Below are positions 44,935 through 44,990 of a stretch of DNA of 64,000 nucleotides, one piece after another. The notes under the pieces are model-generated. The model did no database searches and had not been told where the DNA came from. It saw nothing but the letters and a program-made list of their open reading frames with translations. Within the stretch, counting starts at the first letter, position 1, and each line of letters begins with the position of its first letter. The position numbers and the translations under genes were made by a program. Source of the stretch: Octopus vulgaris (taxonomy: Eukaryota); the NCBI GenBank assembly GCA_951406725.2, contig OX597819.1, positions 64,356,001-64,420,000 of the forward strand, in the 5' to 3' direction.

Positions 44935-44990
44935 TTTGAGCTGATGATAGAAGTGTCGTTTTGACTAATCTTGAAACGTACGTTCTCAAA
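44935..44990 (+). ncRNA. minimal type I hammerhead ribozyme, copy 1
   Basis: tttgag-CTGATGA-t[aga agt gtc gtttt gac taa tct]t-GAAA-C-gtac-G-TT-ctcaaa. Stem I is tttgag/ctcaaa, the core is intact, helix III is the palindrome AACGTACGTT, and the GUU triplet predicts cleavage after 44984. Confidence 0.85.

Follow-up and report, generated by a model that had tools for sequence, protein, structure and literature searches.

The window analysed here, a 64,000-nt stretch of the Octopus vulgaris genome (contig OX597819.1, positions 64,356,001 to 64,420,000), carries hammerhead motifs in tandem with a palindrome in helix III. The question raised by this locus is whether such a palindrome makes cleavage depend on dimerisation between adjacent units, as an earlier note on this DNA had proposed, or serves another role. 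The motifs lie in one insertion of a young, non-coding tandem repeat with units of 545-563 bp and a type I hammerhead in each unit (Table 1). The array has a GC content of 33%, its units differ pairwise at 4 positions, and it contains no open reading frame longer than 91 codons from stop to stop. It stops at unit position 44, one of two fixed end points of the family. A second hammerhead-like string within the unit (44878-44895) was dropped, as it has neither core nor fold.

Table 1. Positions of the hammerhead motifs, the repeat array and related features, numbered from the first base of the window.
Feature	Position	Strand	Details
Single-armed retrozyme insertion	44675..46407	+	three 563-bp units plus 44 nt
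Units 1, 2 and 3 of the array	44675-45237, 45238-45800, 45801-46363	+	
(TA)n and A/T low-complexity tract, 5' side of insertion	44542..44694	no strand	
(TA)n target tract, 3' end of insertion	46402..46433	no strand	
Hammerhead 1, type I	44936..44990	+	core CTGATGA 44941-44947; GAAA 44973-44976; N17 = U at 44984; predicted cut 44984/44985
8-nt palindrome ACGTACGT, A15.1 to U16.1, loop GTAC	44976..44983	+	predicted shared helix of double hammerhead
Hammerhead 2	45499..45553	+	palindrome 45539-45546; predicted cut 45547/45548
Hammerhead 3	46062..46116	+	palindrome 46102-46109; predicted cut 46110/46111
Hammerhead of AGCT-loop family	35205..35255	+	3' strand of helix I damaged (lost)
Inverted partner hammerhead of AGCT-loop family	34739..34788	-	helix I intact, helix II damaged
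Decayed hammerhead of another repeat family	46435..46488	+	motif at 46440; GGAA core
GAAACCGGTT	37351..37360	+	inside 381-bp inverted-repeat arm; not a hammerhead

The type I core elements CUGANGA and GAAA are present in all three units together with a UH cleavage site, the triplet being GUU. GUU is cleaved more slowly than GUC or GUA. It is among the cleavable NUH sites (PMC3138052). Three helices with open ends in helix I are predicted around the core, and across 37 distinct family variants 95.3% of cells were paired, compared to 28-50% in slid controls; double-sided changes were found in 2 of 20 pairs, a modest covariation. In every unit the motif is flanked by helix I (TTGAG/CTCAA), and its helix II has a basal U·U. 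An Rfam scan of the window produced no match at gathering scores, and free folding of the isolated motifs gave no z-score beyond 0.4, the hammerhead fold not being the minimum.

The 10-nt palindrome described previously, AACGTACGTT, is present at 44975-44984 and again at 45538-45547 and 46101-46110 (563 and 1,126 bases on), with CTGATGA cores upstream of the three copies at 44941, 45504 and 46067. While its letters stand in all three units, its two outermost bases serve other roles, the A as core A14 and the T as cleavage nucleotide N17, which leaves the 8-mer ACGTACGT as the helix-forming part. N17 is A in 6 of the 37 distinct variants, which breaks the 10-mer and leaves the 8-mer intact. The monomer helix III is indeed only 2 bp long, consisting of A15.1-U16.1 plus one C-G pair around GTAC. 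ACGTACGT therefore combines a helix III of no more than 2 bp with a palindromic loop, the combination expected of a double hammerhead.

Energies of the monomer and dimer folds were modelled, leaving out core and tertiary energies and folding during transcription. The palindrome duplex was modelled at -9.8 kcal/mol versus +2.4 kcal/mol for the 2-bp hairpin. In a two-unit RNA, the modelled cis dimer lay 6-12 kcal/mol below two monomer folds, and relative to one monomer fold it ranged from -0.2 to +6.0 kcal/mol. Active folds of both kinds were 12-18 kcal/mol above the free ensemble and thus rare at equilibrium, and palindrome-palindrome pairing reached ~5% when the model was left unconstrained. 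That only tandem copies would be active does not follow from these values, in which the cis dimer is level with or above a single monomer fold, nor from published kinetics. Similar invertebrate hammerheads, with two base pairs and a tetraloop in helix III, are reported to cleave efficiently from single-unit constructs, with rates of ~0.8 and ~0.1 per min given for coral and mussel retrozymes (PMC7229834).

It is possible that the monomer cleaves adequately through an extended helix I and distal contacts, with the palindrome inherited and optional and the tandem arrangement only supplying two cuts. The single-unit rates and the absence of a modelled dimer advantage over one monomer fold fit this reading, as does the conservation in the family of the extended helix I and its internal loops, with one double-sided change in distal helix I. 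However, the basal U·U of helix II and the variable loop 2 are also found in the dimer-enhanced axolotl ribozyme HHR_Amex2, and the single-unit cleavage reported for coral and mussel may itself be dimeric. We consider cleavage by the monomer with an optional palindrome unlikely, also given the loop sequences described below.

The palindrome does not imply adjacency either, because such a sequence could join separate transcripts just as it could join neighbouring units. Dimers might form mainly in trans, between two transcripts or one transcript and a cleaved monomer, and possibly with the aid of proteins, in which case the adjacency of units would be immaterial. In the two-strand model the dimer was at -20.6 kcal/mol compared to 2 x -3.0 kcal/mol, and the model indicates that folding of the 500-nt spacer works against the cis dimer. 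No more than one hammerhead per strand was present in 18 of the 33 insertions examined (some of these loci being cut at 3 kb), palindromic loops are equally common in dispersed families such as those with AGCT and GATC loops, and low activity even in dimers has led to host factors being proposed (PMC4209133). Single-hammerhead insertions may, however, be dead ends, and pairing in cis would have a concentration advantage during transcription. Two-unit constructs of axolotl HHR_Amex2 are also reported to cleave much better than one-unit constructs, the monomer cleaving 22% in 1 h (PMC7229834). A mainly trans dimer is, on balance, improbable.

The explanation that we favor, and hold to be fairly likely, is that the palindromic loop 3 lets two hammerheads swap strands into a double hammerhead, which would cut much faster than one alone and release unit-length RNA. 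Double-hammerhead cleavage, which the earlier note took as established, is a published mechanism and is plausible for this family. Dimerisation probably enhances cleavage without being strictly required for it, and it may take place in cis or in trans.

The earlier note suggested selection for self-complementarity from three related motifs in the window with different palindromes, of which one held. AGCT at 35243 proved to be loop 3 of a separate hammerhead family, to which 23 of the 100 genomic copies tabulated below belong. The partner of the window copy lies on the opposite strand (34739-34788), so the pair could not pair within one transcript. The region 34634-35359 is a short inverted pair of AGCT-family hammerheads with (TA)n on both sides, a typical truncated Penelope-type insertion. 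The letters CGCG are found at 46477 but represent a private change in a decayed copy with GGAA in place of GAAA; by by-eye count, TCCGGGA is the commonest insert in that family (10 of 24 matches), and the window copy is the only one of the 24 with CGCG. Helix III inserts in this family have the odd-length form TCC-N-GGA, which in a dimer would give a central mismatch and in a monomer a 3-bp helix with a 3-nt loop. CCGG (37355-37358) does not belong to a hammerhead: no CTGANGA was found within 55 nt upstream with one mismatch allowed, and the combination of motifs had 1 match genome-wide and 1 in the control. The arm in which it lies is one of two perfect 381-bp inverted arms (35396-35776 and 37031-37411) with five 44-bp subterminal repeats and ~1.25 kb of CA/TA microsatellite between them, a structure that looks like a foldback or MITE-type element. 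A further inverted structure, at 38910-39095, has 93-nt arms without spacer that are 81% complementary.

Better evidence for selection than these examples came from the genome-wide tabulation of loop 3. An evenly spaced 400-kb sample plus the window gave 8 descriptor matches, 3 of them from the window, which was too few, so whole-genome pattern counts were used instead. A free-tetraloop pattern with a C-NNNN-G helix III had 11,727 matches compared to 1,255 in the reversed control, and the first 100 matches listed were all fetched and scored for loop palindromes. Among these 100, 75 tetraloops were palindromic, where 7.6% are expected by chance. Where helix I is intact, 38 of 44 loops were palindromic, compared to 37 of the remaining 56, and five of the six non-palindromic loops among the 44 still pair with G·U. 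The 100 rows contain 11 different palindromes, and all four self-complementary inner dinucleotides are represented among them. These rows cannot be treated as independent, because 66 of them fall into three families by by-eye grouping; outside these large families, 17 of 34 rows were palindromic. Loops with a W-S inner pair, which are incompatible with a palindrome, made up 7.1% of the excess over control versus 27.2% of the control. Within a monomer loop the two inner bases are unable to pair with each other; that they are complementary suggests, as far as can be judged from sequence, that one ribozyme pairs with another. The outer loop pair could matter in the monomer as well. If the palindrome were optional in a cleaving monomer, the 11 different palindromes across families and the scarcity of mismatch loops would be left unexplained.

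A related pattern with G-C at the base of helix II had 32,737 matches (control, 4,144), which by eye are mostly minimal hammerheads with a CG insert or decay products. Another hammerhead family has an ATGT loop in the copies seen, which is self-complementary only via tandem G·U pairs.

A lineage with CCAC/GTG in helix I comprises 3,811 copies with GATC, GATT and AATT loops; by-eye counts in the first 100 listed were 35, 28 and 36, respectively, with a single AATC. Genome-wide, the lineage has 904 copies of GATT, which gives a G·U in the dimer, versus 23 of AATC, which gives an A·C mismatch, and the duplexes were modelled at -5.8 and +0.3 kcal/mol, respectively. Two amplified subfamilies supply most of the GATT copies, so the 904:23 ratio reflects few independent events. 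Both steps of the GATC-AATT series are CpG-type changes. CpG decay alone can turn GATC into AATT, and the palindromes might therefore be a chance or DNA-level by-product of common ancestry, such decay or a protein-binding palindrome, with no role in RNA pairing. A chance palindromic tetraloop is expected in about 1 in 13 cases, and two of the three examples in the earlier note were false. This account does not explain why half of the rows outside the three large families are palindromic, nor why G·U-compatible loops amplify while mismatch loops are sporadic, an asymmetry that exists in RNA and not in double-stranded DNA. We regard a by-product without RNA pairing as very improbable.

The window array belongs to a dispersed family. 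The 2.8-Gb genome has 1,555 candidate places for the unit, and the 40 that were scored gave 202 matches on many contigs. Hammerheads matching the family pattern number 2,103 genome-wide with 0 in the reversed control, and CGTACG is kept in 2,049 of them; positions that differ between subfamilies are N7, N17, loop 2 and the helix II base. A relative at 72-81% identity also keeps CGTACG. Clusters of units are 85-96% identical, and some of them are junction chimeras. Taken by itself, the constancy of the loop within the family counts for little, because 209 of 553 six-column windows are likewise invariant between clusters, and we rejected it as a stand-alone argument for selection.

Insertions of the family are partial tandems, often with an inverted arm, and the ends inspected adjoin TA-rich tracts. 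In a by-eye count of 23 two-armed insertions, 22 had one arm ending at unit position 44 and the other at ~504-521. Neither of these fixed ends coincides with the predicted cut (unit position 310), and the arms reach ~9-12 units. The two fixed ends suggest that copying may be primed internally, at a pair of A/T-rich sites in an RNA that is either circular or multimeric. Its sequence places the element among the non-LTR retrozymes, and its insertions are of the Penelope type: hammerheads occur in consecutive units (three here and up to 11 per strand elsewhere), the family is low in GC, multicopy and dispersed, and the partial tandems with an inverted 5'-truncated arm lie in microsatellites as do those of Penelope-like elements.

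No reverse transcriptase (RT) or GIY-YIG open frame joined to a unit, and no autonomous partner, was found among the loci fetched. Open frames for RT near four arrays or in the window were rejected as partners, being other retroelements or separated from the array by microsatellite. The window itself has a frameshifted LINE at 55800-58573 (+ strand), with endonuclease and reverse-transcriptase domains in two overlapping open frames, as well as two tandem dimers of one 184-bp SINE-like repeat (5243-5610 and 52227-52591). At one fetched locus (367-1386, - strand), a GIY-YIG fragment with Cys/His motifs is located ~870 bp from a retrozyme array and may belong to a Penelope-like element with which the retrozyme shares target tracts. 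No RNA run was listed among the sequencing runs that contain the family, which were available as assembled contigs in which ends and circles are not visible. One contig that starts exactly after the predicted cut was rejected as a cleavage product: two other contigs of the same run overlap there by ~30 nt, so its start was attributed to a branch of the assembly graph at N17, which varies. The assembled contigs of four more runs gave no end signal at the predicted cut.

In the double-hammerhead mechanism that we favor, read-through transcription would produce a multimer RNA in which the 8-nt palindromes of two units pair, 8 bp replacing the 2-bp hairpin with helix I crossed. Cleavage at both sites would release a 563-nt monomer. 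Following the schemes outlined in PMC7229834 and PMC4209133, a host ligase would close this monomer into a circle, and the lone hammerhead in the circle would cut slowly, allowing the circle to persist. A Penelope-like RT/endonuclease would then copy the circle, for more than one turn, into (TA)n. A more far-reaching version, which is speculative and in our judgment rather unlikely, is that loop 3 acts together with helix I as a pairing code specific to each family, such that every one of the genome's many hammerhead families cuts only its own RNA and only when two copies meet. The ribozyme would then act as a copy-counting switch guarding the unit circle, and the GATC-GATT-AATT series would be a record of a ribozyme-ribozyme helix evolving via a G·U intermediate, selected in each round of retrotransposition.

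As far as they are described in PMC7229834 (Cervera and de la Pena 2020) and 10.64898/2026.07.22.740005 (Li, Clavereau and Pollet 2026), metazoan non-LTR retrozymes resemble the octopus family in being non-coding, low-GC tandem repeats with a type I hammerhead per unit, dispersed as arrays that range from monomers to multimers. The octopus unit is longer than the coral, mussel and axolotl units of 220-390 bp and falls within the 51-972 bp range given in 10.64898/2026.07.22.740005. The octopus family differs in its two-armed insertions with two fixed end points. Non-LTR retrozymes have been argued to derive from Penelope-like elements (10.64898/2026.07.22.740005), and according to PMC8557442 tandem copies, inverted 5'-truncated copies and a bias for microsatellites are features of the latter. 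Hammerheads of Penelope-like elements (Cervera and de la Pena 2014, PMC4209133) share the palindromic 15.2-16.2 and loop 3, but the octopus motif is not minimal, with a 6-nt insert rather than 0-2 nt, and its unit is without an RT/GIY-YIG open frame.

Axolotl HHR_Amex2 comes closest among published architectures: as described in PMC7229834, its helix III has two pairs and ends in a tetraloop, and its helix II has a basal U·U mismatch. The octopus motif differs in a longer helix II with an internal loop and in having U or A at N17. Newt satellite 2 and avocado sunblotch viroid have double hammerheads in which an unstable helix III is likewise rescued by merging two ribozymes, and this merging was proposed to spare the monomeric circle (Forster et al. 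1988, as cited in PMC4209133 and PMC6466107). Helix III of the newt and Amex1 type has one base pair, whereas the octopus motif has two. Double-hammerhead cleavage of a palindromic helix III has been proposed or shown (PMC4209133; Lunse et al., as cited in PMC6765202 and PMC6466107).

No published account of this octopus family was found in a literature search that was not designed to prove absence. Palindromic-loop double hammerheads are already published (PMC4209133; reviewed in PMC6765202 and PMC6466107); the mechanism is thus already known, and the family is a further instance of palindromic-loop retrozyme hammerheads. The octopus genome contributes numbers: its young copies run to thousands, the loops include at least 11 different palindromes, and there is a natural series of G-C, G·U and A-U pairs. 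Together they form a ready-made panel for determining if invertebrate retrozyme hammerheads with a 2-bp helix III cut as monomers or as dimers, on which the papers cited here differ, and the same panel bears on whether dimer gating keeps retrozyme circles intact.
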